From: an uncultured Planctomycetales bacterium
Lineage (GTDB): Bacteria; Omnitrophota; Gorgyraeia; Zapsychrales; JANLHA01
NCBI GenBank assembly: GCA_964374105.1
Contig: CAYJXI010000001.1
Coordinates: 199,743-263,742, forward strand
Reading direction: 5' to 3'
DNA length: 64,000 bases
Numbering within the stretch: the stretch's first letter is position 1; each line of letters begins with the position of its first letter. Shown here piece after piece: positions 3,001 to 60,166 of this stretch. The notes under the pieces were generated by a model. That model saw only the letters and a program-made list of their open reading frames with translations. It had not been told where the DNA came from and ran no database searches. A program made the translations under genes and the position numbers.

Positions 3001-6000
3001 TCCCAAAGAAGTTGTAGCCGGGACAATTGAGGGAGTTCTTGTGGAAAGGTATCTGCGATCGATCCTTGTCATCTTTCCCGAAGAAATTCAAAAGAAAGTC
3101 AACCATCAATACCAATCTCTTCCCGGAGTGGTTCGGGAAGATTTGGTCAATAAATGGGTGACGATCCAAAATGAGGCTGTTCGGCTGACGGTTGAATTCC
3201 TGATCCCGGCTATGTCTCAGGATTTAAGAAGAATCCTGGATATGGCTTATCCAGCTGGAGCTAGCGAATTTATTAAATCTTATCTTGCCAGGAAATTAGC
3301 GCTATTTAATAAGAAGGAAGACTCAGCGGTTGTTACGGCACAATATTTTAAAGATGGGAGTCAAGAGTTTAAGAAGCAAGTTATTCAGATTGTTATTGGC
3401 CTGCTAGAAGAACAATTGGAGAAGGCCAGAGAAAAGACCAGTGCTTCCGCAGAGGCCGTTAAGACCGTTAAGGATATCTATATTCGAAAGATAGAAAGCG
3501 AATTAACGCCGCAGCTTGTTTCTGATATCAAAGGAGGAATCCTGAATCGCCTATTGCGTGAGAGACAGAGTGGTCTTGATCTTGAAAAGCAGAGAGAAAA
3601 GGAAAAACAAAGACAGGAAGAGCAGAAACGTCATCTGGAAGAACAAAAGAAAAAAGAAGAAGCTAAAAGAAAAGCAATGATCCAAGAACAGGTGAAAAGG
3701 GCCAAAGAAGACATCCAAAGAATCATTGAGCAAGGCCAAAGGGTTGTAGCCGATTTTATGGCCGGCCTGTTAAAGAAAAAAGATCAGCAAAAGCTTAAAG
3801 AAGAATCGCAAAAGAAACTCGAAGACCTTTCGACACAACTCATGAATTTGGCGCAGGGTGTGGTGATGGTTCAATTAAGCCAGGAAGTCCTCAATGCCAA
3901 TCAAGCTTTAAATAAGATCAGTGAGACATTAACCGCATTGGCGCAATTCCCCATTAAAAATATTTTAAGCGAAGATGATCTTTTAGGACTTCTTGAAATC
4001 GTTTCTTCTTACCAAGAAGCAACTCACCTAATTGATCAGGAAATTCAAAGACGGGAGGAATTGCAAAGAAAGGTAGAGGAACAAAAACAGCCTAGTGCAT
4101 TAGAAAAAGAACAGGTTGAAGAAGAAATTCCGCAGCTACCTTCTGAGAAGGCTTTAGGGCTTTCTGATCAGCTTGAGGGCCGATGGAAGAGACTGGTGCG
4201 GGAAGTAGAGGATGCCGAAGATCCCTCGATGAAAGGCAATGCTTTAAAACGACTTGAGCGCGAGATCAATCGGGCCAAAGAAAAGGCTAAACCCAAAGGG
4301 AAACGGACCTTTGTCAATACTAAAGAGCGAAAGAAGCCGCGAATTCCCGATGGAGTCGAAGAATTTTATTTAAGAGAAATACAAAAGAAAGGGAAATTCC
4401 CACCCGGCAGACAAGGCTTCCAGGCGCGCATTAAAGAAGAGAGTTCTTGGTTTAGAAGTGCGGCGAACATTTCCAAGGTCGAAGAACTACCCTTTGTTTT
4501 ATCCCAGCAAAAGATGTCAAGGATTTTTGTTACCATCGAGGAGAAAAATAGTCTTTTCAAAATCTCCCAGCGATTCCCCAGGACATTTTTAAGTGACGGT
4601 AAACTCGCTAGTTTATTAAAGGAAGCCCTCTCGGCTTTAGGAGTCATTGACATTAAGTTTGCTCACCGCTTAAAAGAATTCCTCCAAGCCAATCATTCTT
4701 TCAATTTGTTGACCATCAATCATACCTTCCACCTTTTCGAAAATTATGAGGATTATTATCTCATTGTAGTCAATTTTGGTCTGATTGATCTCTACCGAAA
4801 ACGGGCCATCCAGGCAAGTAACTTTGAAATCGCTCTCACTGTGGGTCTCGTCCATGAGCTTGGTCACTGGGCCTCCCCTGAGCTTGAAGAAAAACAAAGG
4901 ATCGACATTGATGTCCAACTAACCCGTCGGCTCATTGAAAGCAAAAGCAACTCCTATCTTACTTTCCGCAAAATAGCGCACCAATATATCAATCATTTGC
5001 TCAATCTTATTGAAGAAGAAGGTTATATCAAAGCCCTTGTTAAGGATTTAGAAGAAAAACCCGCCAGCAATTTGTTTGTTCCTGAAGCTGGTCAGGAAGT
5101 CAAACCACCTGTTACGGAAACGGCTACTAAGGCGGTACCTGCGGCTACTGAGTCCCAGGCTGAATCTGTGATCGTCCCCACTAGAAACGGCTTCATAACC
5201 TCTGAATCTCACATCTCCGATGTCATTCCTGCGAAAGCAGGAATCCAGCTTGAGGACAATTCTATTTTGGATTCCCGATTAAGGCATTCGGGAATGACAA
5301 AGAAAGGTTATGAACCCGGTTCTAAAGAAGCTGAAGCGTTGTTAAAGGAAGATTCTCATAAAGGCGCCGTCATCTTTGAACATAATGATCGTCAGGATGA
5401 TCTCGTTTCCTCAGCCGAACCGGTTTTAAGTCAACCCCCATCAACTGAAGTAACTGAAAAACCAACGATCGAAGAACCCGCTCTCTTTGACCTCATTATC
5501 ATCGTTGAACCCAATGTGGGATCAAAGCTGAATCAAAGGGAAGCAGAGAATCTGAAGATGGAGATTCTTGAAATCTACAAAGAAGAATTAAAAGAATTAA
5601 AGATTACGCATTTGCGAGTTGTCAAAGGAGAAGGCCGTTCTGTCAAACTAAGATCATTAAAGGAATTTGTGGAGATCGAGGTCTCGATAACCCATAAAGA
5701 CATAAAATCCTTAAACAAAATTAAAGAAGCTATCAGAGCATTATTGATGAGCCATCTTAAAGAAGAGTCATCAAGAAAACAATTGTTAGAAACAAAAGAG
5801 GTTTTAAATGAACCCATTGAGGTTACAGATTATGGGAATATCGATTTCGGTGGGACATTGGTTGAGGAAAATGAACATCTTCAAGAAATCATTCGGCGGC
5901 TCTATAAACAATACGGACCGATCTTAGAGAAGTTAAGTATCGAAGAAGTCAATATCATTTATGAAAAGCAACAAACCTTTGAAATCCAAGGGAAGAGATT

Positions 6001-9000
6001 GATCTTACATTTAAGACATGCCGAAATCCTAAAACGGAAGCAGACCCCAATGTCATTTCAGACCGGGAGTGTTATGACCGGGAAAAGAATCATCGGTTTA
6101 GAACAAAGACCCGATGAATTTTCCACCCACAAATTCAAAGAGGAATTGACTGGGGTCTTAGAGATGCTCAAGGTTTATGTGGAAAGACAAGCGTCACCAC
6201 CAGGCATGCCCAATGCCATGGTGCCTTGGGTTTATGATCGTTTGGTTCAGAGAGGATGGTATCACAGGGCTATCGGTATAGCCATTATTTTGGAGGCTAT
6301 TTTGATCTTGAAAGTTGGTCAGGTATTAGGTCTTTCGGTTATTGGATTTGGGATTTTGAATTTTGTCATCCATTTGATGGGGCCGTTGTATCGGTGGATT
6401 GAAAAGGAAGGGAAATGGATCATCGAAAAGACCGATTGGCCGAAGGAAAGACTTGAGGCCTTCCGCTGGGCCATGAATTTTGTGGTGAGTGGCATGGTTA
6501 TCTATACCCAGAATGACAAATCCGCGCACTGGTTATTGGACTTATTTCTGCCTCCTCAATTCGCATTTCTCTTCGGATATCAGATTCTGGGTATTCCTGT
6601 TATATCGATACTCGTAGCGATGAGTTTGCATGCCCTTAGAAATTATTTACCGCGAGTATCCGGCTGGGACGTTCCCTTGTTGATGGCAGGCCTGCCTGAC
6701 CGGCAGGCAGGTTGGGTTAAGCTGGCTGCAAAGAAACGTACGTTTGGTAAAACATCCCATCCGCCTAAGCCTTCTCAATCTCCTCGAAAACCAAATCGGG
6801 CTTGGAAAGTGGCGTTTGACCGCGCCTTTAAAATTAAAAAACTATCTCAAAAGTTAAAGGCCTTGGATCGATTGGCAAAATCTTTACACAGCCCAGGTGT
6901 CCTTAAGACATGGAGGAAAGAATTTCATAAGGTTTATCGCGCGATTGTGGTTGAGGCGTTTCGCCGCAGCCTGTCTTACGAAGGCGCATCGAGAGTTTTA
7001 GGATTTGGGGATAACACAGAAAGGCTGTATCAGTTGATGTACCGCCTTAGGTTGACAGCTCATGAGCGAAAGATGATTGCTCAGTATGTTGCAAAGGCAA
7101 GACAAAAGCAATTTCGTTCCCGCCGAATGGCCATCAAAGAAATTTTCATGAAGAGTCAAACGCGGCAGGAGGCCTTAAGGAAGGTTAAGGCCATGGATCG
7201 GGTTAAACGCAAAGATGAGAATTTCCTGTGGAGTCTTGCAGACAATTATCGGCTTAAACGTGAATACAGGGCCCTGATGGAGCGTCATCGAAAGAATCAA
7301 TCCGAAAGTTTAACCCAAAAGAAGTTAAAGAAATTTAAACCTGTTCTTCAAAAAGCAATTCAAAAGAGCCGGGGCCGACCTGTCCTTATAGCTCAGTATT
7401 TTGGTTATCGATACTTCTCACTTCTCGTCAAATATAACAAAAATACAAGATTGATGGAAACATTGCGTCCGATCATTATTAAAGCGACTTTAAGATTTAT
7501 AGAGAAGGTCAAACAAAGGCCTATTGATGAACAGCACCGAATCTATGTTGAACTTCAAGATGTTACCCATTGGTTTGGCAAGGAGGAAAAAGACCACTTG
7601 GGAGTTATTTTCATTAGGACATTAAATAAGGCACACGCGAGAATTATGCAAAAGGCCTGGGTAAGGGGCAAAGGCGATAAGAAAGAGGCAGCTAAGAATC
7701 TCGGTGTATCAACTAATCGGATGGATGACTGGGCCTTGAGGTTTGATTTACCCTTGGCCAAAGATATCAAGATCATTGAGTCGTACCTGCAATTGATCAG
7801 TGAGCCGTTCCCGCCACCAAATCCGCTCAATCGGTTAGCTGAGCATTATCATGTGACAATCTATCGAATCCGGAGTCGATTACTCAATTTAAGTCAAAAA
7901 GGACAACAAATTGGTTTAGCCCCTCTGCCGCTTCTCCATCCCATAGGATGGTCAATGGATTTGGCAACAAGACTTTTGATTGGGGTGTCCTATGAGCTTT
8001 GGTTGAAAAATAAACATCGATTTGATTCATTAAGACAGAAGGAACAGGGGAAAGGGGAATCCAATACAGAAGAACAACTGAAAGCCGAGGTTATAAAAAT
8101 TAAACAGCAAGCACAGGAATTGGCTTTTTCTATGGCGAAACATTTCCTTCAGAAAGAGCGTTCTCTGATTTTAAGCAAGTTAAAGGAAAAGAAGGGGGAC
8201 CTCAATGAGGCTGCCTTAGATCTTGGGATTTCCTCAAAGAAATTAAAAGAGAAATTTGAAGAACAAAGATTATTAAAGATTTGGCAGTCCCTTTTGTTGA
8301 ATGCCCTTAGAACTCGAATCAAGATCATTGAACAAGATAAAGGTTTAACTCAAAAGGAGCGTTTGGAGGAGTTGAAGAAACTTTACGATCATCCGCAGGG
8401 GGATTTTAATCTCGGGCGTAAAACAGTTCTGTTGGCCATAAGGAGGATTTATCATTCCCTTTTCCTTAAGAAAGACACCTTGGCGCAGACGGCGGACTGG
8501 TTTGCAATAGATTTAGATGAACTGCTTAAGGACATAAGGAAATTTAGAATCAAGGGCGAGGTTGTTAAACAGCAGAGCCGGTCGAAAGCAAAACAGGAAC
8601 AACAGAGAACCCGTTCTCTTTCCAAACAAATCATGGACATTTTGAAATCCCAAGAATTAACTTTGCGTGAACGTTATCAGAAACTGACTCAATTGGATAA
8701 AGAAACCAAGGGTAAGAATAAAGCTGTATCCGATTTGTTTGAATCAGCCACGAAGCGTTTGGTGATTCTTGCGATAAATCAAGAATATACGATTACAGAC
8801 TCAGCCGAAACTTTGGGAGTCACAAGATCAGTGCTAAAAGCAAGGATTAATAAATATGGTCTGGTTTTATTGGTGGATAATCAAAAGAGACGTTTGGAGA
8901 TGAAAAACTTAAGAGAGGCGAAACAAACAAAGGAGAGAAAGAAAAAAGAACAACAACGAAGACAGTTAGAAATGGAAAGGCAGAGGAAGAACAAGGAAAA

Positions 9001-12000
9001 ATTAAAGAAAGAGGAAGACGAACACCAGGCGGTCAATATCCGTATGGCCGAAGGGGTCGTTGAGAAGGTCATCGGAGATTATGACTACCTTTTGCCTTCC
9101 TATCCGATTCTTAAAGGTTTAGATGAGGTTTGGAAACGCCTTGAGCAGATTGAGCAGCAGTACGGGCGTATGTGGGATGAAAGCCTCAAGAACATAACGT
9201 GGAGGGGTGTCGAAGGAAGATTAAGAAATCTAGGAATTGATTCTCGAAAAATGAGGCTGGTGAAAGAAGTGTTCGATCGAGCAGATTTTAAGGAGGCGCG
9301 AAAGAGAGTCCGGGATTTACAGAAAGAAATGAGTCAAGTGCTAGAGAGGAAAATCCTGCAAAAACTAAAGACCGATCCCCGTTTAAGAGAACTCATAATC
9401 CTAGGAAAATGGCAGAGTGTGAAAGACGAGGTTGTCAGTATATTAAAGGAGATGGCCAAAAGCAGGAGCCAACTCAAGGCCACTTATGAGGTGGGTTATC
9501 CACTCCCCCGATTCCTCTTAGATGATGATGAGGAGGTGCATGATTTTAGACCTCTGGATGCCCTCATGGCGGGATTATTGGTGGCTATCTGGGTAGGGAT
9601 TGGGATTGTGGTTTCCACTCTCATTTTAGGAGCGGGGACATTAACAAATGCGATTATGATCTTGGGGATGGTTTATTTAGGCATCGCATTTGTCAAGTTC
9701 AATTTAATTTATGAGGTCGCTTTCCGGGCGATTGCCTTATGGAAGATGTCAGAGAAGCTAGGGATTCTCGATGAAATGAGACAGGGATTTTCTGAAAATA
9801 GAGAGAAGGAAATATTATCTAAACTGGCACCTCAGGAGATTCAAGAAATTAAAACAATCTCCATCGCCCGATCCGATGGGACCTTAACACCCGCCTTTGT
9901 TGCGTTAAGAGAGGATTGGTCTATTCCATCTTTATGGGGTAGAAATCATATTTATCGATATGTCAAAAATCAAATCCTCTGGCATGAAGAATTCAAATCG
10001 CATTGGGTGGGGCTCTTTATGATGGCCCCTGGGTTTAAGTGGATTTTAAACATAGGTCGATTCTTATTTGCCCTTCGAGCGATTATTCCTCAATTGGTTA
10101 TTGGGACGTTAACAATTCTGATCGGCCGGCAGATATTAAGCCTTTTGGGGATCAATGTTTCCTCTTTGTGGTCTTATTTTCTTATTGGTGCCATGATGAT
10201 CTTTAACCTTTGGCTGTATCATGATCTGACTTTCGTCTCCCGCAAATTAAAGGAACTCAAGAGAGGGAGTCAGATGGAACAAATTCTGGCCCTTGAGGCG
10301 CTTGAAAAGAAAGAACGTAAGTGGAGTAAACGGCTCATTAACACCCTTGGCGAGATTATTATCGATCAAGAGAGTCCGTATGAGGCTCGAGTAAAAGCCT
10401 TTGAGGTATTTAATCGCATGCTGATTCGAAATCCGCATTTCTTAACCAGACAGATGTTTGCCGACATTGTCGCAAGTTTTGGATTTTTTGATCTGCACAA
10501 TATGTTTACTCGCTTGTCACACTCCGTACCCTTTCATCTTTTTAAATTAGGGGAGATCCTGCAGGACTTGATTAATTACATTTATCAATTGGTTGAGCCC
10601 TTTAGTCGAAAATTCCAGCAACAGGTGTTACAGGTCTTTCAAGATTATTATCTTAGGGTGATGGTGCATTTACCAGAAGATATCCAGTATAAGGAAGTCA
10701 GCTTTATCAAAAGATTGATGGGAGAAGATTTGAAAGAGAAACGCAATCAAGGAGAAATTCTCTATCCATTAGAGACAATTAAAGCGGCCATTGCTATGAA
10801 GATTCAATTGCATAGGTTGCAAGATTTAGAGAATGTTACCCCTCTTGGCTTGGGGACAATGGAAAGGATCATCCAGTTTCTCGGCCAGGGTTATCCTCAA
10901 CAAACGCGGCAGTTCCTCGAGATGTTTGGTATCGATGAGTTTCTAAGGATTATCAGGGAAATTCACCAGACAGAAACCCATCGCCGCAAATCAGGGGAGA
11001 AGGTCGTGCCGTTGTCAGGCCAAGAATATTATGAAGAGATTCAAAAGAAGATCGAAGAGCGTTTAAGACAAAAGGAAGAGGGAGCTGCAACTGCCGGATC
11101 CATTTCTCATCTGCCAAAACGAGATGATCTGGATTATGCTTTCCCGCGTTGGCAATCTTATCAGTTATCATTGAGTGTCTTATTAATTTTATTGATGGGG
11201 TCGGCCTGGTTCCAAGAAATCCCTCTTTTACGTCCTTGGGGTGATTTGGGCTGGATGTTTCTCTTAAAAGTTTTACTTCCTGCATGGGTGAGTTATTATC
11301 TTACCCTACCATTCATCAATTTTATTCATGAATTGGGTCACAAGATTATTTTGAAGAAATTCGGAGTCAAAAGCAAAATTTGGCATGACAGCGAACGACA
11401 AATTTTGCGAACCCATCCTGACCCAGCCCAATTTGGGAAATTGTCTCCCAAGAAAAAAATTATTGTTTATCTTGGCGGTTTATTGGCCGAGTTTATTTTA
11501 TATTCATTGTTTGCGGTAGGGTTTGGTTTGAATCCATGGAATATGATGAACGGGTTATTATTATTCGCGCCGTTTAAAATTTGGTTAATAATGACGACTC
11601 TGATTGTAAGTATCGGTGTCTTATCGCAATTCCCGCCTTTCAGCCGATGGAATTCATTAAAGACGGATATAGAGAGGGTGTTAGAGGAGATTCGAAAGCT
11701 AAGCGGGGGCCCCACTTCGAAGGAGAAAGATCAGGAATCTAGAGACTCTTTCCTCAATAGTCCTTCTTTAAATAATCTTAACAATGGATTCTCTTTGAGC
11801 AATGACAAGGAAGACCAAGGAGACGGTGATCATGGGAAAAATAGAAAGCATACTCGTTATCTTAACCGAGGCTCAAGCGTTTCGAAATCGGAATTGATTA
11901 ATGCCTTGATGAAAAGAAACGGTAATCAAGACCGGGCAGCTAAGGACTTAAGTGTTACGGGGGGGACACTCTCTTGGCTCATCAAGACAAAATATAAGCT

Positions 12001-15000
12001 TAAGCCCAAGGTTTTAGCTATCAAGAAAAGAGTCAGAGAGCTCCTTGGTGCCTTCCAGATAACTCAAGGGAATGAAGATAAGGCCCGTGCTGTTTTGGGA
12101 ATGACAAAGGTTGATTATCAAAGGGAGATCCGTGAATACGGGTTAGAAGATCAATTGGCCAAAGAGAAAGAGATTGTTTCTTATCTCATCCAAAAACTCG
12201 AGGCGGCCTCGGGGCAAATGACAACTGTGGCCAGGGAGTCAGAAGAGTTCTCGGAACATAATGTAAGAACACTTATCAGGCGATATCAATTAAAGGAAAT
12301 CATCAACAACGCCAAAAAGCGGACCGGTGAATTGACTCAAGGTTTATTGGAGCACAACCTCGATATCGATCAGGCAGCTTTAGCATTAAAGATATCCAAA
12401 GAGGATTTAGAGAAAGAGATGGCCCGTTTTGGGACCACAGTCGAAGCACTTTATCAAAAATATCAAGCTGAGCGTCAAGAAAAAGAAAAGCGAATTTTGG
12501 AGGCAGTAGAGAACCATGGCCTCGATTGGAAGAAGGTGGTCGAGGCTTCAGGTTTCAGCGAAAACTACATTTTTGATGCTATTCATCGTTATCACCTTGA
12601 ACTCAAAGTGGTAAAAATTTTGGTGGACCACTTGCAAAGATTGCAAAAGACTTTATCCGAAGTCAAAAGTTTCAAAGAACTAAAAGGAATGTATGACCAA
12701 ACGGATCGGTTTACAATGAGATTCTTAAAGAAGCCGATCATTTTAGAAATGGCTTTAGAAAAATATCGCGGGGAAATTCTTTTAGAGGGAATCCGACGCA
12801 AGCAAGGCAACGAAACTCATGCCGCTAAGGCCCTAGGATTTTCTTTGCCTGGATTCAGGCGGAATATTCGAGTTTATGGTTTGAAGGATAAAATAAAGGA
12901 GATGAGAGAATTTGTCAAAAAGTTAATCCATACCTTCAAGACTCTTCAAGGGGACAAACAAAAGGTTGCTAAGGCGCTAAAGATGAAGGTGGATAGATTT
13001 GAGGAAGAAGTTGATCGATATGGATTAAGCGATTCCTTTGAAGAGATTCAACTAAGGGTCGATGAACTGAAAAGCCTACTTAAGAAATCCGCAGGCAACC
13101 TTTACCAATTGGCCAAGGATTATCGTATACCATATGTCACTCTGCAGGAAGAAGTCAGTGGTCATGGATTAAAGGAGAAACTGCGCGCCATTCAGGATGA
13201 GACGAAACGCTTACGTCAGTCATTTGAAGCTGTGAGCGGCAACAAAATGAAGGCCGCTAATAAGCTGAAGATCACGGTTGAGGAATTTGACCATCGGATT
13301 GAGGAGTATGGATTGGCGGAGGTTATCCGTAAGACAAAAGAGAAGATCGATAATTTAAGGGATCTGATTGAGGAAACCGGAGGTAATCTTTCTAAAATCG
13401 TTCGGATGAAGATCAAAGGGATGTCTGAACCAATGGTATTTAGAGATGTTCAGCGTTACGGTTTGATGGGATTGGTTCAGCAATTGCGTCGGAAGGATAA
13501 GCCGAAGGTATCTGAAACTCCGTCTGTGACTGCCACGTTGTTTACTCAACGCAGGGCGTGGCTGAAAAACTTGCCGGCACGATTGATCTTCAGTGTCGCC
13601 ATTATAATTCAAGAATTGGTGCATTTGATTGCGGCGTCTCTTCGTGGATTACCCATTAAATACTTTGGGATTGGGCATCTGTTAAGTGCAGTCGAAATCG
13701 ATTACGCTCGCGCGCCACCGGTGGATGAAATGATCGTACGGTTGGTCGGCCCATTAGCCAATCTTTGGGCGGGTCTTGTGGGCCTTATCTTGATTGTTGC
13801 CTTTGACCTTTCTTTGATCCCACAGGGATTTCATTTGAGTTTGGCGACATTGCTCCAATTTTTCACTTTGATCAATTTCGGATTATTCATAAGTGATAGT
13901 GGCCTATCCCTTCTTTTTAAACGAGGGGATGTTTGGGAGGCTTGGGAGGCTTGGAATGAAACCCATTTGCAAAGGTATTTTGCTCAAAATCAAAATTGGC
14001 AAAGCGCCATCTATGAATTATCTGTCTTAAAAATGAATGGGATAATTGCGGGATTCGCTATTACCGGAAGCTTCTCCCGTGGACAGTTTCATTCAAAGAA
14101 AGGACATGACTTTGATCTCACCATCTTTCCCAAGACAGGATTGATGGGGGAAATGTACTTGGCTATCGAGAAGCTGGATAAAAAATACCGGGATCAACCC
14201 TTGCGTGTTCATATCACCCTTGAAGCCTATGGCCCAACTTACCAATTCTATGAAGAGGACCATCGGATAAAACTTGTTTATTACATGGTCCGAGGGGATC
14301 GAGTCCTTGAAAAGATGATCGAAAAAGATCAATACAAGAGCGATCGCCTCATTGATATCACTCATGAGAATTTAAGTATTTTCACCCCTGCCTTTTTGGC
14401 CAGATTGCATCGAGAATTAAGTTCACTGAAACGTCTCAGTTTGGATGAGCTTCAACATCTTATTCGTGAGCCACCGGTCATTAAGGTTCCTAAAGCCTAC
14501 GTTCCTCACTCTCAAAATCAACCCGGGGACGACACTCCGCAGACGCAAGAGGATTCAGAGGAGCATCCCATTAGATCAGAGAACATGTTTGCTCAAGGAG
14601 CGAAGGAAGAGGATCCATTCATCGCTGATCGATTCAATCTCTTAGGCAGGGCTTTGAAAACCCTCGAGGATAAATTAAGGGAGGATATCACCAAATCCGG
14701 CCAGATCATTGACCTTCCGGAATCGGCCTATTGGGTTGTCTACCGAACCAAAGAAGGACAAATTATTTGGAATCTGAGCAAAGAAAAGATTCGGGAGATC
14801 TTGCTCAATAATAGTTTTGAACCTGAAGAGATCGAGTTTGTCATCGATCAAATCGAACTGCATGAACAACAGCCTAACGAAGGGCTCGGCCTAAAGAAAC
14901 AACAGGAGAGCTTGATTGAGATCAGGAATTTAGAATTAGAAAAATTAAGACATGAAAAAGAAGTCCGAGGGGAAATGGCCCGTCTTGTCAAAGAAAGTTT

Positions 15001-18000
15001 TGATCTTGATAATCAGTTTCCTGAGTTTGAAGACCTGGCAACGCTTTTAAAGAAATTCAGAGACTTCAATGAAAAGAAATGGACATTAACAATTGGCAAG
15101 AGAGGAACAACCGCGATTACACCAGTTGTCGGGTTTGGGGTTATCCAATTTTATTCCTTAAGGCCCGGAGTAGAATACAGAATCTTTATGTCCTGGCTCC
15201 CTTTTAGCGGTATTCGGATTTATTTTGGGCATCCGTCACACGTGGTGGCCTTTGAGGTCAATGCTTATCGAGAGCATGTCGATAAGAAAATAAAGAAAAT
15301 GACCCACATTGGCGATCGGGTTGATTTATTTAAGACAGAAGTTCCTGAAGAAGAATCCTTGGAATTGTTTATCTTAAAAGATTTAATTGGTGATTTGGTT
15401 AAGACAGAAGAAGAGTTTGGCTTACTTCTGGAATTGAGAAATGAAGAGACCGCTCAAAGGATGTTAAACGATCTCATTGCGGAGAATATCGTCGAGGAAC
15501 TGGATCTGGAACAAAAAGCAAAACCGTATGTTATTGAAGATATTCCTCCGGGAGTCCAATTGAGCCTTGAGAGGTATTTAGCGCGCTTAAGGCAGGAAGA
15601 AAGGGCTTATCAGGAATCAATTCAACGAAAAGAAAAGGAAGTCATCACTCCCCCCATCCCCCAGGAGGACGTTTACGAGCTTCTTCAGAAAGCAGAGGAC
15701 AAAATCATTTTGGAAGAGCCAGAAAAGGTTCGGCTCGAAATCGAAGAAATCCCCGCCGAAAAGATGGAGGAGTATAAAACACAAATAGAACAAGAGGTTA
15801 AGGAGAAAGATGAAAAGGAGAAAGAAGTTGTTCTGGAATACCCATCGTTGAGTGATCAAGAGATCTTAGAGTTTGTTCAGAAGATCATTGAAGATGATAT
15901 CACTCTTCAAGGAACAAGGCTCCATCATCCACAATGGCTTAAGTATTATCTTTTCGAAGGGATGTCCTCAAGGAAGATCAGCACGTTAGTGAAAACTTCA
16001 GACTCCAACGTTCGTCGCAGGATCAGAGAAGATAAAAAGCGTCTTATGACAATCATGCGGATCAAGTATGGAATATCACAAGAACGGATGAGGGAAATTT
16101 TTAAAGAAAAGGCGGATAGGTCACACTGGCCCAAGGAATATGACTTCTTAGAAAAAATTATTGGAGAGGAAATCCCTCGGGAAGCAACAAGGCTAGCGCA
16201 TCCAGAATGGCTTAAATTCTATCTTTTTGAGGGGAAGTCCTTCAAGGAGATTGCCCGGATTGCCAATACCTCAAAATCGAATGTGATTCAACGGGTAAAA
16301 AATGATGAGGAGCGTATTACCACGATCATGAGAATCCAATATGGAATATCGGAAGATCGGATGAGGGAGATCCTTAAAGAAAAGGCACAGAGGGCTCGCT
16401 GGTCTGTGGAATATGATTTCTTAGATCAAGTCAATGCCTGGTTGAAACAGCCCAACCAATTCCCATTACCTTATAAATTCAATTTGAAGGATACTGATCG
16501 CAATAGTGTCTTGGTATTCAATTTTCTAGGCATTCCTTACCGAGATTTAAAATTCGGCAAGATCAGTCCCAGGAATGATTTTGAATTTGGATATGTTTTA
16601 GAAGTTTTTAGTGAGGCAAACAAAGCAACAGAAGCATACCTCATTGCTGATCAACGTGGTCGAAGACCCCAAGTCTTCTCTGATGATGATTTGATGTTTC
16701 AAGGCAAGGGGGCAGATACCCAATTGCTCAAATGGGCCCTGGCGAAAAGTTTGGCTATCAATATCACTTGGGCCGCAAAACCACGAAAGATCCATAAAGA
16801 TTATTCAGGAAAGGATACAACTGGATCCATTGATCTTTTTGAGATTAAAGATGGCAAACTGAAACCCACCCGCGCGCGGCTGCCTCCCACATACACCTCC
16901 CAAAGGCCTCTTATCCCTTATATCAGTGCAGAAGAATTCACGACCTTTTTAGAAAAAGGCTATTCTGTGATCTTGCTTAAGGAACAAGGGACAACGAAGG
17001 TGGTCATGAGGGTCATCATAGGACGATTAAATAATCAATGGGTCGTTGAAACCGATTGGGAGGGTGATTATACGGACTGGAAGGAGAGCAGTATTCGTGA
17101 AAGAATTTTTAGTGACTTGCAGAAATTTTTTGAAGGACAAAGGCTAACGGTCCCGAATCTGAAGGATCTTGTTGTTAATTTCACAGAAAGAAAAGGAAGA
17201 AAAGTGGCAACCGCTTACTTGGGCGGCTTGATCTATCTAGGGACTCGCTATCCGCACATTTCCGTTCAAATCGGAATTTTGCGATCTGCGCCAGGGGAAT
17301 GGCTTTTGGGTTTATGGGAACCCAATCGGGATAAGAGATTATCCCAACCTTTTAGGATTTTAAAGAAAAAGGGTGATGTTTGGATCAATGTGAAAAATGT
17401 TAAGGTTCGATACTTGAACCAAAGGGATCTTCTGCCAAGGGCCAGCCTTCAGACACCGATCGAATTTTTAGAAAGATTTAAAGAGACTGCCCAAGGATCG
17501 CATTTCATGAAAAATGATTTCATTGAAGAGGTCAAGAGACAGCTTATGATTAACCGAACTTATATTTTGGAAATCCTGTCTAAGGTTCTCAAGCTGATCC
17601 CTAAAGAGCATGGGGCCGTTGAATTCCTGGCTCAGATTGTCCGCGAGGTCAATGATCCCATTTTGACCAATCATATTCAACTTTATTCCTTGCCTTACTT
17701 TGGGACAGCCCTGATGCGTCAGAGAAGTTACGATTGGGGAGAGGAGATTAACAAAATTTTGTATCCCCAGGGACGGAAAGGTGAACATCAGGGTAATCAA
17801 AAGGATAAGAAAAGGAAAAGTAGAAATAGAAATAAGGATAAACTCAACGACAGCAAAGATGATGAACAAAGAAATGGCGGCCCTCACCTGACTGACGGTC
17901 GGGGCGGCCCCCGCCAAGGCGGGGCAGGCCGCTGGCCGTGGATGGTGCCGGTGTATGAGGGAATTGGTAAATTGTGGCCACGTGGCCACAATTGGTCCTG

Positions 18001-21000
18001 GAGTGGAGAATTCATCAACTGGGTTGTTGCGTCAAGCTTGATTGAATCCGGGCTTTTTGTCGGTGGTGGGATGATTGCGATTTTGAAATGGGCCTTCGGG
18101 TTGCCACTTATTTTAGGGCCTCCGCAAGCATTGGTCATTGTCGTTTCCTTCTTTATTCTGCAGTTGATGTGGCATCTCCTTCACGGCCCAGAGGCTTTCA
18201 CCAAAGATAAAATTGCTATTTCAAGATTAGCGGTTATCATCCTTGCCTTAACATTAAGTCTTATCAGATTTTTTGATTTAACGGGTATTGTGTTCTTAAC
18301 AAGTATTGTGCTGGCCATCATATTGCCACATGCGGTTATTAATGCTTTCAGGGAAGGACAACAATTGAGCAAATTCAGTGCGGGAGGCGGATCCCAAGCG
18401 GGAAGAATTCATAAGGCATTACGAAGGTTTCCAAACACGAATTTCATTGGTACGAATAAAATCCCGGTCGTTGGTGGCGATATTTTGAATCTTATGTTTG
18501 GACATGAGGGCCAGGTTCAAAGAGTCATTGGCCATGAGTCCGTATTTTTTACTCATCAACTGGGCAGAATACAAGACGTTGCCGGTCAAATTCCAAACTT
18601 TAATATTCATTTTGGGGATGAGCGAAACAGCTTCAGCGGTTTTAGTAAGCTGTTGGATACATTTGGGATGATTTCTAAGATAAGTGACGGCTTTGCGGGG
18701 AGTGAGGTCAAATGCTTCAATTGCTTCAGCGATCATCAGCCGATGCCAAACCTCGGCAAGAACGATCACCGAGGTAAAACCAGGAATTTCTTTATTCTCA
18801 ACGCGGATAAGAAAGTCAGTGCAGGAATCGATAATCCCGAGAAAATGGTAAATGAAGATATTGGAATCAATGAAAATCGATTGACCCTCAGGAACCTTCG
18901 AGAGCATTTAACCTCCCAGGGGGGTGAAATGGGGAGATTCGGCAATGATTTTACCGAATTTATTGCGGACATGAATGATCGCCTTGGTAAGCCGGGCTTT
19001 GCTCTTTTCATTTTCAATAATGAGCTCTACCTTTTGGTAGTTGCGCAAAGGCAATTTCTTGAGGGGGCGGATAATGCCTTTTTCGTAGATGCCAGCAATT
19101 TTGATCATAATTCATCTCCTTATGCAGTTTCGAGTATAGCTTCTTCGAAGAAGAAAGTCAACCCCCAAAATCGGCGAAAACAAGAAAAGGTGAATCTCCT
19201 CTTTAAGCCCGAATGGACGATTTTCTCTGACGATTCACGAACCCCGAATCACGATTCCAAAGAAGAAGGCGGCCCCCGCCAAGGCGGGGCAGGCCGCTGG
19301 CCGTGGATGAAGAAATTTTATAATTTCTTTGGTCAAAGATGGATGGGCCAGGCCTTGATGCCTTCCTTGGTTGAATCCGGCGGTTTTGTGGCGGGGATTG
19401 ATTGGCTATTATCTCTTGTCTTTGGTTTACCTTACGATTTGAGTCCACCGCATCTAGGCCGTATTGGGATTCTGCAGTTGGTCTGGCATCTGTTGCATAT
19501 CCCACGAGGAAAACCAAAAGAGTCTGTCAGTCCCGCCAAGGTCAGCATAACGGTTGTCAGTTTATTGTTGTTAGGATTCCTGCCTAGTTTTATGAACTTG
19601 TCTTATATCTTCTTAACTATTTCTTTCATTCTGAATTTCGTACATTTTATTGTTAATCTGTTTAACCCATGGGAGGAAAGTCCACAAGGATCATCCCTAG
19701 GCGAAATCAATCCTTTTGGTTTGAAATTAAAGATGGTCCTGGGTGTAAGCCTTTTAGGGATGGTGTTCATGGGATCTCTGTACGTGATGGGGGGATTGGA
19801 TTGGTATCTTACCTTAAAGAATACGCTCATTGAAGGAAATCTTGTGACTTGGAAAGTAGCGTTCATAGATATGGTGACTGGCGCATTTCTCTGGGGTTTT
19901 GGAAATGTGATTGGGCAATATTTGGTCAAACACCCGGCCCGTATAGATTGGCGCCATAATCGATTGGTAACGGCCTTTGGTTTGGCCGGCGGGTTGGGGA
20001 CGCATGTCCTTTACAATTTATTAATGGGACTGGCCATTACCGGTGGAATCAAAAGGATGTTATTTATCCTTATGGGGGGACTCGTGTTGACGCTGTTATT
20101 TACCGTTTCCGAATCCCTGGCCCGACGGTTATTTAACATCAAAAAGTTTTCGGTTAAGGATGAGCAGGCCAAAACGCTTGATGTCCTGGCCATCAAATTC
20201 CTCATCGCCTGGCCGAAGTCCTTCATTGTCGCTAATCTCTTACCTTTACCGCTGCAGGTCATCAGTGAACAGATTTGGGATTATTTCTTGAAACCGGTCG
20301 AGTCCTATCTGATGAACCGGGACAAACCATTATTTGTTGAACCAATATTGCATCGAGTTGTTTGGCCGATGTACCTAAGGGTCAGTTCGGTAATAAACGG
20401 TTTGCAAAAATTATTCCTGGATGACCGAGGTGTCCAAGTGAGAAATTTTGTTCAGGAGTTGTATAGATTACAGCCTCCGCTGCCCATTTTAGATGAAACA
20501 GGTGTTGATCACCAGCGTTACCCTGGGGATCATGAATATTTTTCGAATTTTAAACAGCTGTCCACATTACCGCGGCATAGCACCCTTGGACAACCCGCTG
20601 TCTTTAGTCCATCCGAGACCACATTTTTCCTGATGGCGCATCTTCCTGTCCAAAAAGGGGACTCTGTTTTGGATGTCGGTACCGGCACCGGGGCGTTGGC
20701 CTTTCATGTCCTAAGGCAGGGGGCTAAAGAAGTGTTGGCCATTGATATTGATGAACACGCCGTAGCCACGGCCAGAGATAATGTCAAAGATGCCGGCTAT
20801 GCCAGGCGCATCAAAGTTCGGCAAAGCGATGTGTATGCCAATATTCAAAGAGAAGAAAAATTCGATCTTATCGTATCAGCGCCGCCGTTATTTGCCGAGG
20901 GACGACGTTCTGATCCAGCCATCTATGATGAAGGGTACCGGATGATAAGCAATTTAATCCAAGGTGCCGGGGAACATCTGCGGATAAATGGACGGGTGGT

Positions 21001-24000
21001 CTTTCTCCATTTAATCGGCTCTTATGGCGGCCTGATGACTACGGCCGAAGCGGCAGGGTTTGATTTAATAACCTTGGCGGTTTCCTCTAATATGCCGTTT
21101 GCCATTTACCAATTAACCAGAAAGAAAGATGACTTAAGTTCACTGATGAAGGAGGAAGGCCGTGAGCCTCAGAAACTAAAAGAGATTATCCGGATAAAGC
21201 TTGAAAATTTGCCTCTCCCATCCGCTAAATTTATTCTTGAAAATTTAATCCTGAAATCCACGTATCAAGACCCAGAGATCAAGAACTATCTTTCGGCTCA
21301 GGCGCGAATGGCGCTTTTGGCCAAGGCCTTGGCGGTTTCCCTGAAAAGAAAGGATGCAAATGAGATGGCCGTTTACCTTGAATCTCTCCTTAAGGAATCT
21401 CGCCATTTGATCCTACCTTCTGCACTAATGTTTATCCGTTCTTATTTAACCGTGTATTATCTTAAACAACCGCTAAAGCTTGCCTTTGTGATTCCTGTTT
21501 ACGGCGGACAGAAGGCCTTCTTGGATTTTAAGGATGGCGGAGAGGGCTGGTTGAGGTTCAAGGTTGATCAGTTCTTTGTAGAATTGTTATCGGTCAATCC
21601 AAAGGTCAAGGGAAATTTCATCTTTGTCAATGACGGAGATGATTCAGCCAAGACCGGAAGAAAAACTAGTGATGTGATCCGCGACCTCCTTAAAGATCCT
21701 TTTTATGACAAGGTGCGTGGACAGATCTTTGTTCTCGATCTGCCGCAGGAGACCAAGGTTAAGATGAAAGGAAAGAAACATAGTGCGGTTGCGGCGGGAA
21801 TGAAGTTTGCCTTGGAAAGAGGAGTGGATATTGTCATGTACACCGACCCGGATCTGGCCAGTCATTTGGGATTGAGTGGACTCTTGGTTGATTCTTTGAT
21901 CAACCGCGGATTTGACATGGCGTTTGGTTCGATTGAAATGAAAGGTTCAATTGTTCCTATTCGTTCATTCAAACGCCGTGTTGGGACTCTTGCTTATAGT
22001 CTTTGGGTGAGGATTAATCTTATAAGATACATTCTTAAAGTGAAAGATACCCAAAGGTCTTTCAAGGCCTTTAAACGAGAGATATTAGAGAAGATTATGC
22101 CTATTAGGAAAATGAGTGCTGATCAAAATGGGATCATCCAGCTTAAGGATTATGATCCCGATTTCCATTATGATTACACCGGTGACACCGAATGGATGGG
22201 GCGCGTGAAGATTGTGGGAGGAGGTTTAGAAGAATTCCCGATCGTTTGGATTGATTCACCGCAAACCGCCCAAACAAGTCTAAAGAAAGATGCCTGGCCG
22301 ATGTTTAAGGCCCTAACAGGGCAGAGAAGATCTTTAAGGAATTTTGCCTTAAAGCATTCTGGATTACGATCAACAAATCACGACCCGCAAAACAAGGGCC
22401 GTAACGACAAGGCGTGGGTCTTAGAGGATTTCCGGGATGCTCCCAAGCTCGAGGTTCGGGATGAGAGAAGTCTAGGCTTCGATCCTTGGCGAGATTTGAT
22501 TAAGGAAGTGGATACTTCTTTATTGAAAGAAGCGATTGGTTTGATTCAGCACACTGATGAATTCCCAGGGCAAAAGAGTTTGGTGAATATCCTTAAAGAA
22601 CTCATGAACTTTAGGCGGATCTTTTTTGCTAAGAACCTGCCTGGGATGTTTAGGGCCGAGCGACTCAATGAGGGAGCATATTTGATTTTGATCGATCAAT
22701 CATTGCATTGGTTATTTGGCGGAGCGGACTCTCTGATTCGTATCCGCAGTCCTTCCCCCCGTCAGAGAAAAGCCCTCTTAGCTTTCCTTGCGGCCAAACT
22801 TCTGCATGAGGCCGCGGAAATCCTTATGTCGAATCATCCTAAAGTGCATTGGCATTTGGATGAAAAAGATCCCTCCCTCACTACAACCGAACAGGTTGCC
22901 TACTGGGTTGAGGTGATTTTCTTAAGCCGTATCCCCGCCTTCTGGTTTGATTTTAAGAAATTCCTTAATCCCACAACCGTCTCTCCCTTATTTGTTCTTT
23001 ATGAATCTGTTTTTAGTGGGGAAGAATCTTTAGGCCGTTCCCCGGATCAATCTCCCAAGCCGTTAAGGCAGTTCCTGGCTACTTTAGGTTATCTGGCACC
23101 TTTACAGACTAAACTCTCCCGGGAACTTTTCAAACATATCCTTCAGCAGTTCGATGTTAATCTAGCGGAATTTGAAAGGCAAGAGAATCTTCGGGATTTG
23201 ATTGAATCCACCGTTGGTATTGCCGCGGCGCATTTTGATGACAGTCCCATCGGACGGTTAGCAACTGGAGTAATGATCAGCCGGGATTTTCTTATGACCA
23301 GTCTTCATGTTGTTGAGGATGAACAGGTACGGTTGCAGTCCTTTTTCAAGATTTATATGTTTGTCCCGAGGTCAAATGGCAACAGCCTTTTAAGTAAGAA
23401 ACCCAAGATGTCTGAAGCGAAAGTCGTGGCTATGCATCTCAACCAGGATTTGATGTTATTGAAGATCGATCCAGCCTCGATCCCGTCAGGGATTGTCTTA
23501 AGAGAAGTTAAGCTGGGGTATCAGGAGAGCTTGAAGGGAGGAATGCCGTTAATCATTTCCACCCTTCGTTCAGATGAAAAAGCGATTGATGAGAAGGCAC
23601 CGAGAATTCAGATCACCTCCACTTTGATTCCTCCTGTCGAAGAGGACCTCATTTATATGAAATTTGCTTCATGGAAAGGAGTGAGTGGCTCGCCCGTTGC
23701 TGAACGAGGTGGGCGCTTGGTGGGGATTTATATCGCGACTGAAAAATTAGGCATGAAAGATAAGGGTGTCGCGCATTCCATTGGGGCTGTGCGCAGCATG
23801 ATCGAGACATTGAAGATTCCACTGTCGCAGAGTCACGGCCGTTCAGCAGATCATAAAAGTGACAGTCACTCCCGCCATGGCGGGATGACTGTCACCTTTA
23901 GAGAAAAAATTAAGAAATGGTTAGTGAAGGCAATCGAATTTCAGGATAATATAATTCGAACATCACGAATTCCTATCTTTAAGTTTTTAAGGCTGCTATC

Positions 24001-27000: not shown

Positions 27001-30000
27001 TGTCTTTGTTTGGCTTTTGGTGTGGGATATGTTGGAATTAAGAGAAAGAACTGAGATTCTGGATGATTTGCCTGTCCGAATTGATTCTTCGGCAGATCGT
27101 TGGGACATCGAACTGATATTCGGAAGAAAAGGGATCTTTGATGCTTTAAGCTCATTGGAAGTCCATGATCGGCGCAATGCACAGACAGCTGTTTTAAACT
27201 ATTTCGGCAAAATCAAATGGATTCAGAAACGCTTGAGCCGTGATCCGCGGATGAGTTTCTTATGGGAACTGGATGAGCCATCCTTAAGGGACTTGATTAC
27301 GATTATTAAAATTACCCATACCAATAGCACCTTGGTCTTTAATGCCATGACCATGGCGGAAGTTTTACCTGAGGAAATTAGAAGTCTCATTAAGGTCATT
27401 CCGTTTAATAACACTTTAACTGCGGTGATCAACCTTTTCGGTGAATATGCCAATTTCATCATGGATTTGCGCAGTAACGGCAAACTCAAATTTTTAATCG
27501 AAATGCTGACCTTTGTTGGTTTAGAGAAGAAACAATACTCGCTCACTCAAATTGAAGGGATCTTGGGCTATCTTGCTGAACACAGATCCAAAGTTCTGAG
27601 TTGGAGTAAAAAAGATTTTCAAGATTTTGAACTGGATTGGTATTCCTATTCAAAGGCCATCCCGATCTTCCATTCTCGCCTGTTTGAGTATTTTATTAAG
27701 TATCAAGCTCAGGAGCACCTGATTCAGCAAATGAGTCAGGATGTCCAGGAGGAATTATTGGGCATCGCTTGGGGCAAATTTAAAGGATTAAAGGGAAATT
27801 TGCGAAAGTATGGGATGACCGATAGGGATGAATTTGTTTTGCTGCAAAAATACATCCCAATCAAGGGATACGGGCCTACCATTTATGCGGATGTCTTTCA
27901 GAAGTTGACCGAGGCTGTTGAAACAAGAAAGATAACAAGAGAGGATGAACCAGAATCTTATCTCTTAGATCAAATCCTTTTGGTGAGAGGAGAACGGGAG
28001 ATCAGACATCTTAAGGGATCAGAAAAATTGAATGATCAATGGATGGATCAGATGCTGAAACTTTTTGCTGAGCCGCCAGCGGAAAGTTTGTCTTTATCAG
28101 AGCGTATAAGTCAATATCTTAAGGAGGGTCTCTGGTCTAGAGAGCTAATGGAGCAGTCGGCGATCATGTGGCTGTTAGCAAAACCCACCTACCAAGAACG
28201 GTTGTCGAAATTAAAGAACAGATTAGAACAATTTGATCGTTCTGATATGACTTTGCAGATCGAAAGCTATCTACAATTGATGGAGGATATCCAAGTTTTC
28301 CTCTCGGATACCTGGGAAAATGATTTAAGGGATGCCCGCAGTCAACTCCTCAAAGAAGTGGTGGAAAAAGAAAGAAAGGCGGGTTTAATTAACTTATCAA
28401 CGGGTTTAGGAAAAATTGCTGTTGTCAAAATGCCCCGGAAGAAACTGAAAGCGGTCTTTGCAAAGATTGCATTGCCCTTTGATACCCTTTCTTTAAGTCA
28501 AACATGGGCCCAGGAATTAGGTCTAACGTTGTGTGATAGGAATTCTCTGAAGCGGCTGAAGGAAGAATGGAAAGTCAAAATGATTGAGTACATTATTTCA
28601 ATCTTTAAGAAAGAATCCAAAGGGGAGGTGGCCGAGGAGACTAAGGCAGCAATTAATGAAGCTTTTGATCTTATGATTTCAAAGGAAGAAGAACGAAGAA
28701 GCAAAAATGAGTTAACCAATGAAGAAATCCAAAAGATAACTTTAGATTTGGAAAGAAATTTACGGGAGATATTTAAATCCAAAGTTCTGTTATTGGAAGA
28801 AGAGACGCAGAAATTTGAGACTATCACACTTCCGGGGATGGGGAATACGGTGGTGATGGGACTCTTTGGGGATCCCTTGAATTTGATGTATTGTCAGGGA
28901 GAATGTACTTTCCGCGATTGGCCAAGGGCGATCCTTGATCAAAGATACTTTTATATGAAGTTATTGATTAAAGAGCCCGGGGTGGAAAGTGGAGGGCGTG
29001 TCTTAGGGGGAGCGCAAGTACAATTTTTAAAAGAGACAATCAGAGAAAGAAAAGTGAAAAGGATGCCCCGGGGTTGGGCGATTTTGAGTTTACCAGGGAT
29101 CAATATGGACGAAGGGATCGATAAGTATGGGATCGGAAAGCGCCAAGGGATAAGGTTCCTGTTAGAATTTGCCCAGCGGTTAGCCGAGGAAACCGGACTC
29201 CAAGGAGCAGTCATCCCCATCGATATTTTGATCCGCCACCAAAATTCTGAAGGACCCGAGGCAAAGGTGGTTGAAGAACTGATTCAAAAGGGGTGGTTGA
29301 AACCGGTCAAGTTGAGTTCAACCGTGGAACTAGCCCCTAAAACAGAATTCAATAATCAGTATACTTACGAAGATGTGTATCTAATAGATATTCCTAAAAA
29401 CGAGATGATGACAAAGGAGACACCTTTTTCAAATCTCAAGGAATATCTGGAAAGGGAGGAACAAACACCGTCCCTTGTTGCCAATCTTCCCGGGATCGGG
29501 GTGTGGATGCGGGTCTTATTGGCAGGGGGAATCTTGCCGCATGAGTTAGGACACCTCATCGTTGGGCCTCAAAAGGGTAGAAGGTTAGATTACGGCTTAA
29601 GGAGAATTCTGAAAGGCCTTTTCTATGCTATGCCCTGGCCAACCCGAGGGCCGCCGGCCTTGGTTGGTCTGGCGGTGAATCTCTTCTTGGCGGTTGTTTT
29701 AGGGCTTTTGATCTGGTCAGGTTTATTGAACTTTGGGTTTACATCGAATTCTTCGGCCTTTCTCTTCTACCTCTTTATTTCCAGCCTTATCGTATTTCTT
29801 TTGGAAATCCTGCTCACCCCATTTGCGGAAAGCTTAAAGATAAGCCGATTTGCGGATTTAAGACAGATGAAAGGTGATCCCGCCATGGCGGGATCACCTT
29901 TTTATATCCCAGGGCCGCTGCGAGTGTTCAACCGACCGTGGCTTCCTGCACCACACAGGGTGCAGGACCATGAACCCAATTCCGTACCACATAGGGTACG

Positions 30001-45727: not shown

Positions 45728-46228
45728 GCCCATGACCCGCACTTTGACCAAATCCGCAAAAATGCCTTTAATGGTGATGATCCCCAAAGATCACAAACCC
45801 AATCTCCCAACGACCCCCACCGCGCGAAGGAGGGCGACCGTGTTGAGACAGACCATCCTTTAAGACCAATCAGCCAGCTGGGCGCCGTTTTGTGGCGATT
45901 TTATCAGCCTCGGGTGGCATGGGGATTTTTAAGAATTGCCTTTTCAACGACCGTGGCGAATTACCGGCACCTGCGCCATCACGGTATTCGCGGGGCGCCA
46001 CTGGGACGAATCCAAGCCGCACTCCGCGCGCCCTTCTTCAAAACCGCCGAACGTATTGACGGCCTGCCGCGGTGGAATATCGACCGCCATCTCCTCCCCG
46101 AAGATATCCAGCGCCTCGTTGACATCCACGAATCGCAACCCTGCTGCCGCTTGGGTAACCGCGAGATGGCGATAACCATTCAGAAAAGGGAAAGCAGACA
46201 ACGATCTAAAGAAAATTCAGCAGATGTC
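45728..46228 (+). other. Junction between the two giant ORFs. The single in-frame TAG (45725-45727) is followed by 54 stop-free in-frame codons that include a DPHRAKEGDR motif copy (45812-45841), then a ~400-bp GC-rich (~60%) block, before AT-rich ORF2 proper (an in-frame ATG is at 46229).
   Basis: Frame arithmetic: positions 2, 45725, 45812 and 45890 are all 2 mod 3. The GC-rich block shows ORFs on both strands in the provided track. Confidence 0.6.
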
Positions 46229-59124: not shown

Positions 59125-59390
59125 AAAAATTTTCTATTGACGAGGATCTTAGAATAAAGGCAATTCCAAACTTTTGAGGGATTGTCTTTTTTTATTGATC
59201 ATTGCTTAAGAAGGTTATCTTTTTAAAAATTTTAAGACCAACACGTTGCAAATTAAATTTGAAAATGATAAACTTGGAAAGGAGGAGGATAAAGATAACT
59301 TACGAAATTTCAAATGGTTGTGAAATAGTTTTGAAAGATAAATTTCTGGATCTGAAACCCCACAAGTTTCTTATTAAATGAAATATTTTT

Positions 59391-60131: not shown

Positions 60132-60166
60132 CTTTATTTTAAAATTATTTTAAACCTTCCATTAAT

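Follow-up and report, generated by a model that had tools for sequence, protein, structure and literature searches.

Compact site-2-protease-like modules, mostly of a QExxH type, recur inside giant multi-domain bacterial proteins

Introduction

Some bacterial proteins reach 10,000 to more than 100,000 amino acids (aa). Do such giants work as single chains, or are they cut, and if so by what? C39 and S8 domains are the only candidates that have been proposed. We consider this question for a 64,000-nucleotide stretch of contig CAYJXI010000001.1 (assembly GCA_964374105.1, positions 199,743 to 263,742), called the window below. Most of it is taken up by ORF1, an open reading frame (ORF) for a giant membrane protein that contains three compact modules (mod2, mod3, and mod4) resembling the core of the M50, or site-2 protease (S2P), family of intramembrane metalloproteases.

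In the phylum Omnitrophota, giant genes with many transmembrane regions have already been described, and post-translational cleavage of their products by C39/S8 domains has been proposed (bioRxiv 10.1101/2023.11.21.568195). Published descriptions of these genes name C39, S8, and signal-peptidase-II domains. The main texts of two Omnitrophota giant-gene papers do not mention M50, PF02163, CPBP, or PF02517, and the word ‘metalloprotease’ does not appear in the main text of bioRxiv 10.1101/2023.11.21.568195. The M50 family and the giant genes of Omnitrophota are thus known; what is new here is a minimal, mobile M50-like module, mostly with QExxH at its first motif, that is repeatedly embedded in giants.

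If these modules are proteases, a recurrent minimal S2P-type unit with an active-site-like constellation would offer concrete, mutable candidates for processing sites. The candidates sit in several copies inside giant chains, near trypsin-like, S8, and CPBP domains. For the study of intramembrane proteases they would represent the smallest S2P core yet and the first found inside chains of many domains; as a natural variant, QExxH would bear on metal choice and on the origin of pseudoproteases. The evidence for reading the modules in this way is all computational, and part of it is sub-threshold.

A family of QExxH modules

The features needed first are as follows (positions are those of the window).

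2 to 45727, plus strand: ORF1, a giant membrane protein with many passes, 15,241 aa or longer (a single ORF with 0 internal stops and about 9-10 hydrophobic helix clusters)
13478 to 13990, plus strand: mod3, M50/S2P-core module of the QExxH type, ORF1 aa 4493-4663 (Pfam M50, family alignment A1, MjS2P profile match, AlphaFold2, Foldseek)
13610 to 13624, 13748 to 13762, 13874, and 13895, plus strand: putative site residues of mod3, respectively QELVH, GPLAN, N4625, and D4632

The 5′ end of ORF1 is the edge of the window, so 15,241 aa is a lower bound on its length.

Pfam Peptidase_M50 matches mod3 with 23.6-23.8 bits (E 3e-5; cut-off 27.2). An exhaustive search of 1.84 billion representatives with ORF1 aa 3700-4700 identified seventeen related proteins, twelve of which match solely aa ~4490-4660, which is mod3. 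No relatives were returned by a word-indexed homologue search with the same region and with A1, in which the limit of 8000 candidates was probably swamped, or by a scan of genome contigs with ORF1 aa 3700-4700, and a metagenome scan with alignment A4 found the contig of one known relative (P0002) only. The mod3-matching proteins include chains of 5218, 6443, 4574, 3117, 2270, and 1964 aa; the rest are shorter and lie on short contigs. P0002 carries three copies of the module and P0003 carries two. With a length of ~170 aa, the mod3-type module is rare and mobile, and the other proteins that contain it are giant or partial.

Alignment A1 consists of thirteen copies from the mod3 family, with ~34-43 per cent identity to the copy in the window. 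Five positions are invariant (E46, H49, G91, N95, and D140) and three more are at least 90 per cent conserved (Q45, P92, and N133). The invariant Asp lies seven residues past the near-invariant Asn, as in ‘SNLALFVSD’, and a second invariant Asp falls in a C-terminal ‘RRGDVWE’ helix. The first-pass annotation of the window had proposed that catalytic residues be compared across homologues, and in this family E, H, G, N, and D are kept over all thirteen copies. The residues that stay invariant across these very divergent sequences coincide exactly with the site positions of M50, and no copy has lost the catalytic Glu, a pattern that would favour activity.

The first motif position is Gln in twelve of the thirteen copies. 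The remaining one, from P0013, has His (HELAH), and there His also replaces the otherwise conserved Asn133. This double His may be a coupled change at a putative metal site, seen in a single case. Upstream of the first helix the family conserves ‘ETPSxTATxF..AWLKNLPAR’, which in mod3 itself reads ‘ETPSVTATLF..AWLKNLPAR’.

Links to characterized proteases came from several directions. The Pfam M50 model matches five of the thirteen copies (best E 3.3e-6), and one family member, P0008, is named ‘M50 family metallopeptidase’ by NCBI. When the A1 profile was compared with the PDB, the best match was MjS2P (3b4r, E 0.0012), followed by RseP homologues; in the MjS2P alignment QExxH falls on HELGH and GPlaN on GPLvs. 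An AlphaFold2 model of mod3 built from A1 (predicted local distance difference test score, pLDDT, 80.8) shows three long helices, the first of them followed by a short hairpin, and a terminal helix. This agrees with the S2P core fold of three membrane helices plus a re-entrant beta-hairpin. A Foldseek search of the PDB with the model placed SpoIVFB at the top (probability 0.99, E 0.048, template-modelling score, TM, 0.45) and MjS2P at rank four.

Just after mod3 (window ~14070-14130, ORF1 aa ~4690-4710), the sequence ‘GSFSRGQFHSKKGHDFDLTIF’ resembles the G-S...DxD motif of Pol-beta-type nucleotidyltransferases. No Pfam or PDB sequence match supports this resemblance.

Further HExxH regions in ORF1

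Three other regions of ORF1 carry the word HELGH.

29465 to 29860, plus strand: mod4, aa 9822-9953, a module of the M50/S2P core with HExxH (hhalign to the mod3 family; relative P0001)
29540 to 29554 and 29804 to 29806, plus strand: site residues of mod4, HELGH and E9935, the latter where the mod3 family has its invariant Asp, with ‘VGLAVNL’ in the place of GPxxN
11165 to 11641, plus strand: mod2, M50-like membrane module, aa ~3722-3880 (Pfam Peptidase_M50 21.8 bits, E 1.3e-4, aa 3767-3843)
4388 to 5041, plus strand: mod1, soluble region with HELGH (4853-4867), aa 1463-1680 (homology to P0013)

The sole relative of mod4 is P0001, a partial protein of 1108 aa from a metagenome-assembled genome (MAG) labelled Elusimicrobia. 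The two are 44 per cent identical over 133 aa, in the module only, and both keep HELGH, ‘TRGPPAL’, and ‘EIxLTP’. A profile made from mod4 (A2) aligned to A1 with an hhalign probability of 97.5 per cent (E 7e-12, 131 columns). This alignment places HELGH on QExxH, the G...N pair on GPxxN with the Pro lost, and a Glu (‘LLEILLTP’) on the invariant Asp. A hidden Markov model (HMM) of the mod3 family found P0001 (independent E 1.7e-8) and mod4 (1.4e-3). Because of the hhalign result and because the family HMM finds P0001, we regard mod3 and mod4 as two branches of one module family, and their homology to the S2P core is well supported.

The case of mod2 is less direct, and its homology to the S2P core is likely. 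Its HELGH lies at 11327-11341, and ‘GGLLAEF’ stands where GPxxN is expected. NCBIfam gave weak RseP matches only, with TIGR00054 (RseP) matching mod2 at E 0.0028. The sole PDB match to mod2 is an Aquifex RseP homologue (9j82, E 0.62), in two co-linear pieces that correspond to the HEFGH helix and the ‘GGPLFNF’ helix. The hhalign comparison of mod2 with the mod3 family is weak (probability 15.6 per cent), the third helix of mod2 holds no acidic candidate for a third ligand, and mod2 had no match among the 1.84 billion representatives. For both mod2 and mod3 the Pfam match covers the N-terminal half of the M50 profile only. When ORF1 aa 1-5000, which contains both, was scored as one piece, M50 reached 37.5 bits at the sequence level, above the 27.2 cut-off. 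We rejected the idea that mod2, mod3, and mod4 arose by recent duplication within ORF1; compared with one another by pairwise BLAST, they reach only E 0.065-1.

The fourth region, mod1, is of a different kind. Its homologue is aa 2024-2222 of P0013 (6443 aa; 25-29 per cent identity, pairwise E 1e-8), in which HELRH lies under HELGH within a conserved ‘ALxVGLxHELxH’, and conserved Glu and Asp residues follow downstream. No zincin family could be assigned to it, as Pfam, NCBIfam, and the PDB all returned no matches, and its AlphaFold2 model was unusable (pLDDT 41.5). We take mod1 to be only a conserved HExxH region.

The first-pass annotation had described three membrane-embedded M50/S2P-like modules and one soluble metalloprotease-like module in this polypeptide. 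Homology bears out the three membrane modules (Pfam for mod2 and mod3, MjS2P, SpoIVFB, and the 97.5 per cent hhalign result), none of which reaches 27.2 bits when taken alone. The soluble one found no family support as a peptidase, and its one homologue keeps HExxH. A GPxxN-type helix had been said to recur three times: mod3 has GPLAN, the ‘GGLLAEF’ of mod2 is without the Pro and the Asn, and the counterpart in mod4 is ‘VGLAVNL’. The ‘GPPAL’ upstream in mod4 instead aligns with an ‘APP’ motif of the mod3 family.

Motif counts and chance

Short motifs accumulate in long proteins, so we asked how many of these would be expected in ORF1. It contains exactly three HExxH motifs, each of them HELGH, at aa 1618, 3776, and 9847 (nt 4853, 11327, and 29540), with QELVH at aa 4537 (nt 13610) and GPLANL at nt 13748. 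This recount agrees with the positions first reported for HELGH, QELVH, and GPLANL. The composition of ORF1 predicts 0.65 HExxH motifs over its 15,241 aa (Poisson P of three or more = 0.028), and 3.2 per cent of 2000 shuffles of ORF1 reached three. The rate of one per 3,000-4,000 aa assumed at first was therefore about six times too generous to chance. For the word HELGH the expectation is 0.004, and the probability of three or more is about 1e-8. In mod2, mod3, and mod4, HELGH or QELVH lies inside or adjoining hydrophobic segments; the surroundings of the motif in mod1 are not hydrophobic.

Could the motifs nonetheless have arisen by chance in an ORF that is very long and poor in information, or is the ORF itself an artefact of assembly or annotation? 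The probability of three or more HExxH motifs is no lower than 0.028, and homologues lend little or no support to mod1 and mod2. Against this stand the three identical HELGH words, the HMM, profile-profile, and fold matches, which are independent of one another, and the occurrence of modules homologous to those of ORF1 in unrelated assemblies. A stop-free frame of 45.7 kb cannot come about by chance. We consider this explanation very improbable, and for mod3 and mod4 it already fails.

Other proteases and domain context

Two protease-type domains of other classes, one on ORF1 and one on the next ORF, accompany the M50-like modules.

23261 to 23728, plus strand: trypsin-like serine peptidase domain, ORF1 aa 7754-7909 (Pfam Trypsin_2, PF13365, 30.9 bits, cut-off 27.6)
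45890 to 52798, plus strand: ORF2, a polytopic membrane protein of 2302 aa directly downstream of ORF1
50126 to 50461, plus strand: CPBP/Rce1-like intramembrane glutamic protease domain, ORF2 aa 1413-1524 (Pfam PF02517, 35.9 bits, cut-off 22.4)

The Trypsin_2 match spans the full profile (1-144 of 144), and the His (TSLHVV), Asp (DLMLLKI), and Ser (GVSGSPV) motifs were located by eye in the sequence. No PDB sequence matched this domain at E<=0.01. In ORF2, EEVIFR, FKAH(G), and HFIWN stand for the CPBP motifs EExxxR, FxxxH, and HxxxN/D. Both domains had been predicted, and both score above their Pfam cut-offs with their catalytic motifs present. Together with the M50-like homology they uphold the broader suggestion that one locus combines several modules of protease type, drawn from three classes. 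Pfam identified no further protease-type domain in the remaining transmembrane clusters of ORF1 and ORF2.

Two other parts of ORF1 could be recognized.

11888 to 13501, plus strand: tandem array of about ten Fis/NtrC-type HTH_8 (helix-turn-helix, HTH) repeats, aa 3963-4500 (Pfam HTH_8, 33.3 bits, cut-off 22)
20591 to 21001, plus strand: S-adenosylmethionine-dependent methyltransferase domain, aa 6864-7000 (Pfam MTS, 71.3 bits, E 1e-19)

The array, with the repeat pattern ‘..GN..AAk.L......YGL’, fills the 540 residues that separate mod2 from mod3. Five proteins (P0004, P0007, P0009, P0012, and P0016) are stand-alone multi-HTH_8 repeat proteins related to it. Sub-threshold HTH-type matches were also seen in ORF1: HTH_23 inside the array (12491-12592, aa 4164-4197) and, outside it, RWP-RK (8786-8863, aa 2929-2954) and Sigma70_r4_2 (16223-16294, aa 5408-5431). 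The methyltransferase domain shows the multi-enzyme nature of ORF1. A hydropathy scan identified ~9-10 membrane-type helix clusters in the protein, of which three are the M50-like modules (~aa 3722-3880, 4524-4631, and 9828-9947). The ~6,200 residues of aa 9001-15241 (window 27002-45724) have no Pfam match at E<=0.01, and mod4, found by profile-profile comparison, is the sole recognizable element in them.

The other carriers of the module are also rich in enzymes. P0015 has AceK, histidine phosphatase, and HD domains; P0002 has an adenosine-deaminase-like domain (Pfam, sub-threshold); and in P0001 a glutamate dehydrogenase follows the mod4-type module. In P0014 (2270 aa), a Peptidase_S8 domain (aa 1650-1813) lies directly upstream of a QExxH M50-like module (aa 1839-2005). 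As multi-enzyme chains, the carriers fit the ‘multi-enzyme metabolic cluster’ class of Omnitrophota giants. Weak matches to the ChaN/Tiki superfamily (Cofac_haem_bdg) were seen in P0001 (aa 165-207), P0014 (aa 459-505), and P0015 (aa 443-500), upstream of the module in all three, and by eye the P0013 N-terminus resembles them. ORF1 yielded no counterpart.

Possible processing of the giant chain

ORF1 is a giant multi-enzyme, multi-pass chain, of a type already known in Omnitrophota, that contains three compact modules derived from the M50/S2P core. Their common plan would be an [H/Q]ExxH helix, a beta-hairpin loop, a GPxxN helix, and finally a helix bearing N..D/E. From the homology of the modules, their fold, the conservation of their site residues, and the order of domains along the chain, we infer that the modules would be catalytic and bind a metal, with the chain's own membrane anchors as their substrates. 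Such cleavage within the membrane would free soluble blocks, for example the array of ten HTH_8 repeats held between mod2 and mod3. Further cuts may come from two other domains, the trypsin-like one in ORF1 and the CPBP one in ORF2. We think the chances evenly balanced that intramembrane processing of this kind, by which the giant polyprotein's own anchors are cut, is what the modules do.

The nearest precedents each share part of this arrangement. MjS2P (3B4R), SpoIVFB (8VJL), and RseP (7W6X) of the M50/S2P family (PF02163) are the best sequence and fold matches, and their order of elements, an ExxH membrane helix, a hairpin, a GPxxN helix, and a last helix in which an Asn is joined by an acidic residue, is kept in the modules at least in part. 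Unlike them, the ORF1 modules are ~130-170 aa long, lack PDZ and CBS domains, and belong to a type that is embedded, up to three per chain, in proteins of 2,000 to >15,000 aa. They differ at the site as well: Gln comes first in twelve of the thirteen mod3-family copies, and the acidic residue comes without LDG, is Glu in mod4, and is absent in mod2. With the Omnitrophota giants (‘Archaeovorins’, the Dockerin-type, and multi-enzyme clusters), ORF1 shares its great length, many transmembrane regions, diverse enzymes, and large unannotated parts; Pfam found no SecA_DEAD, C39, or dockerin domain in it.

Viral and bacterial polyproteins with embedded self-processing proteases exist, and ORF1 resembles them in having many enzymes and several protease-type modules on one chain. 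We know of no polyprotein in which intramembrane metalloprotease modules serve as processing enzymes. A further parallel is regulatory. S2Ps classically free membrane-tethered transcription factors after a cut by a DegS-type serine protease (PMC6411480). ORF1 likewise combines a trypsin-fold protease, S2P-like modules, and a membrane-held HTH segment. Unlike the DegS-RseP system, it has all parts on one polypeptide, no anti-sigma/sigma pair, and an HTH part that is a ten-fold Fis-type repeat, so the resemblance would be one of logic only.

Several observations weigh against processing by these modules. No membrane module alone reaches the Pfam M50 cut-off, and mod4 has no Pfam match of its own. 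The fold match of the mod3 model is modest (TM 0.45, E 0.048). In M50 enzymes the third zinc ligand is the Asp in NxxPxxxLDG of a later transmembrane helix (PMC6411480). This motif, and with it the canonical third ligand, is absent from mod2, mod3, and mod4; in the mod3 family the spacing from Asn to Asp is seven rather than eight and the prolines are missing. The Asp of mod3 and the Glu of mod4 may be functional equivalents. Nowhere does the canonical set of H-E-x-x-H plus Asp occur: His gives way to Q in mod3, Asp to E in mod4, and an acid is wanting in mod2. Since mod2 has no relatives, its conservation cannot be judged. A three-helix core should also leave its two flanks on opposite sides of the membrane, an uneasy fit when one flank is an HTH array and the other consists of apparently cytoplasmic domains.

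These departures from the canonical ligands, together with the absence of GPxxN from mod2 and the sub-threshold M50 scores of all single modules, are what would be expected if the modules were M50-derived pseudoproteases, three-helix bundles that kept the fold and lost catalysis. They could then serve as membrane anchors or insertion units, or bind transmembrane segments without catalysis, in the manner of iRhoms and Derlins among the relatives of rhomboids, and they do make up three of the ~9-10 transmembrane clusters that punctuate ORF1. Decay, however, would not leave Q, E, H, G, N, and D unchanged, or almost unchanged, in thirteen copies, the catalytic Glu among them without a loss, and mod4 and P0001 retain a full HELGH and a conserved Glu. 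Nor does Gln at the first position necessarily abolish activity: VMP3 of Volvox, a matrix metalloproteinase with QEXXHXXGXXH, is active despite Gln for the first His and prefers Cu(II) (PMC7717551). VMP3 is soluble, of the metzincin type, and of a different clan, and is a precedent for the chemistry alone; by this analogy it would favour activity of mod3. We regard loss of catalysis as the main rival reading, possible though not probable.

If the modules are active, their substrates could also be other proteins. To our knowledge, all characterized M50 enzymes act in trans on separate substrates. Working in trans as RseP does (PMC6411480), the modules might cut anti-sigma factors or other regulators, serve membrane quality control, or attack the membrane proteins of prey, and Omnitrophota giants have been linked to predation (bioRxiv 10.1101/2023.11.21.568195). 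Action in trans leaves unexplained why the module is nearly restricted to very long multi-domain chains, with several copies per chain. As the structures of MjS2P and RseP show, the S2P active site faces the interior of the cell's own membrane and not that of prey, which argues against prey proteins as substrates. We consider action in trans quite unlikely. Processing of the chain itself can also be put in a more specific form, in which each module is a cis-acting unit that cuts near its own ‘ETPSxTATxF..WLKNLPAR’ junction or a neighbouring anchor. The chain would be diced into separate enzymes and the HTH_8 block freed as a self-contained circuit of regulated intramembrane proteolysis, with the Gln shifting the metal from zinc. 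This form of intramembrane processing is speculative, and we think it rather unlikely in all its parts.

The surrounding locus

Beyond ORF2 lie mutL and mutS, on the minus strand and converging on ORF2, followed by a few ordinary genes. The nearest relatives of the window's MutS, at 64 per cent identity, come from a ‘Candidatus Omnitrophota’ MAG and a MAG labelled Planctomycetales, and all others are at most 44 per cent identical. Based on these identities, the host is probably a member of Omnitrophota or close to it.

In the locus of the closest MutS relative (L002), a giant ORF of at least 2721 aa (14393-22558, minus strand) occupies the same place, convergent with mutL, and has protein-kinase and adenylate-kinase-like domains. 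A second related locus (L003) has genes of ordinary size at the corresponding position. We detected no similarity to ORF1 or ORF2, and no M50-like modules, in the L002 giant ORF or the L003 locus. The giant-gene slot beside mutL seems to turn over quickly. Within the window, G+C content falls to 0.35-0.37 at 50001-52000 and 58001-62000, compared with ~0.43 elsewhere; these stretches are the transmembrane-rich part of ORF2 and the genes past mutS.

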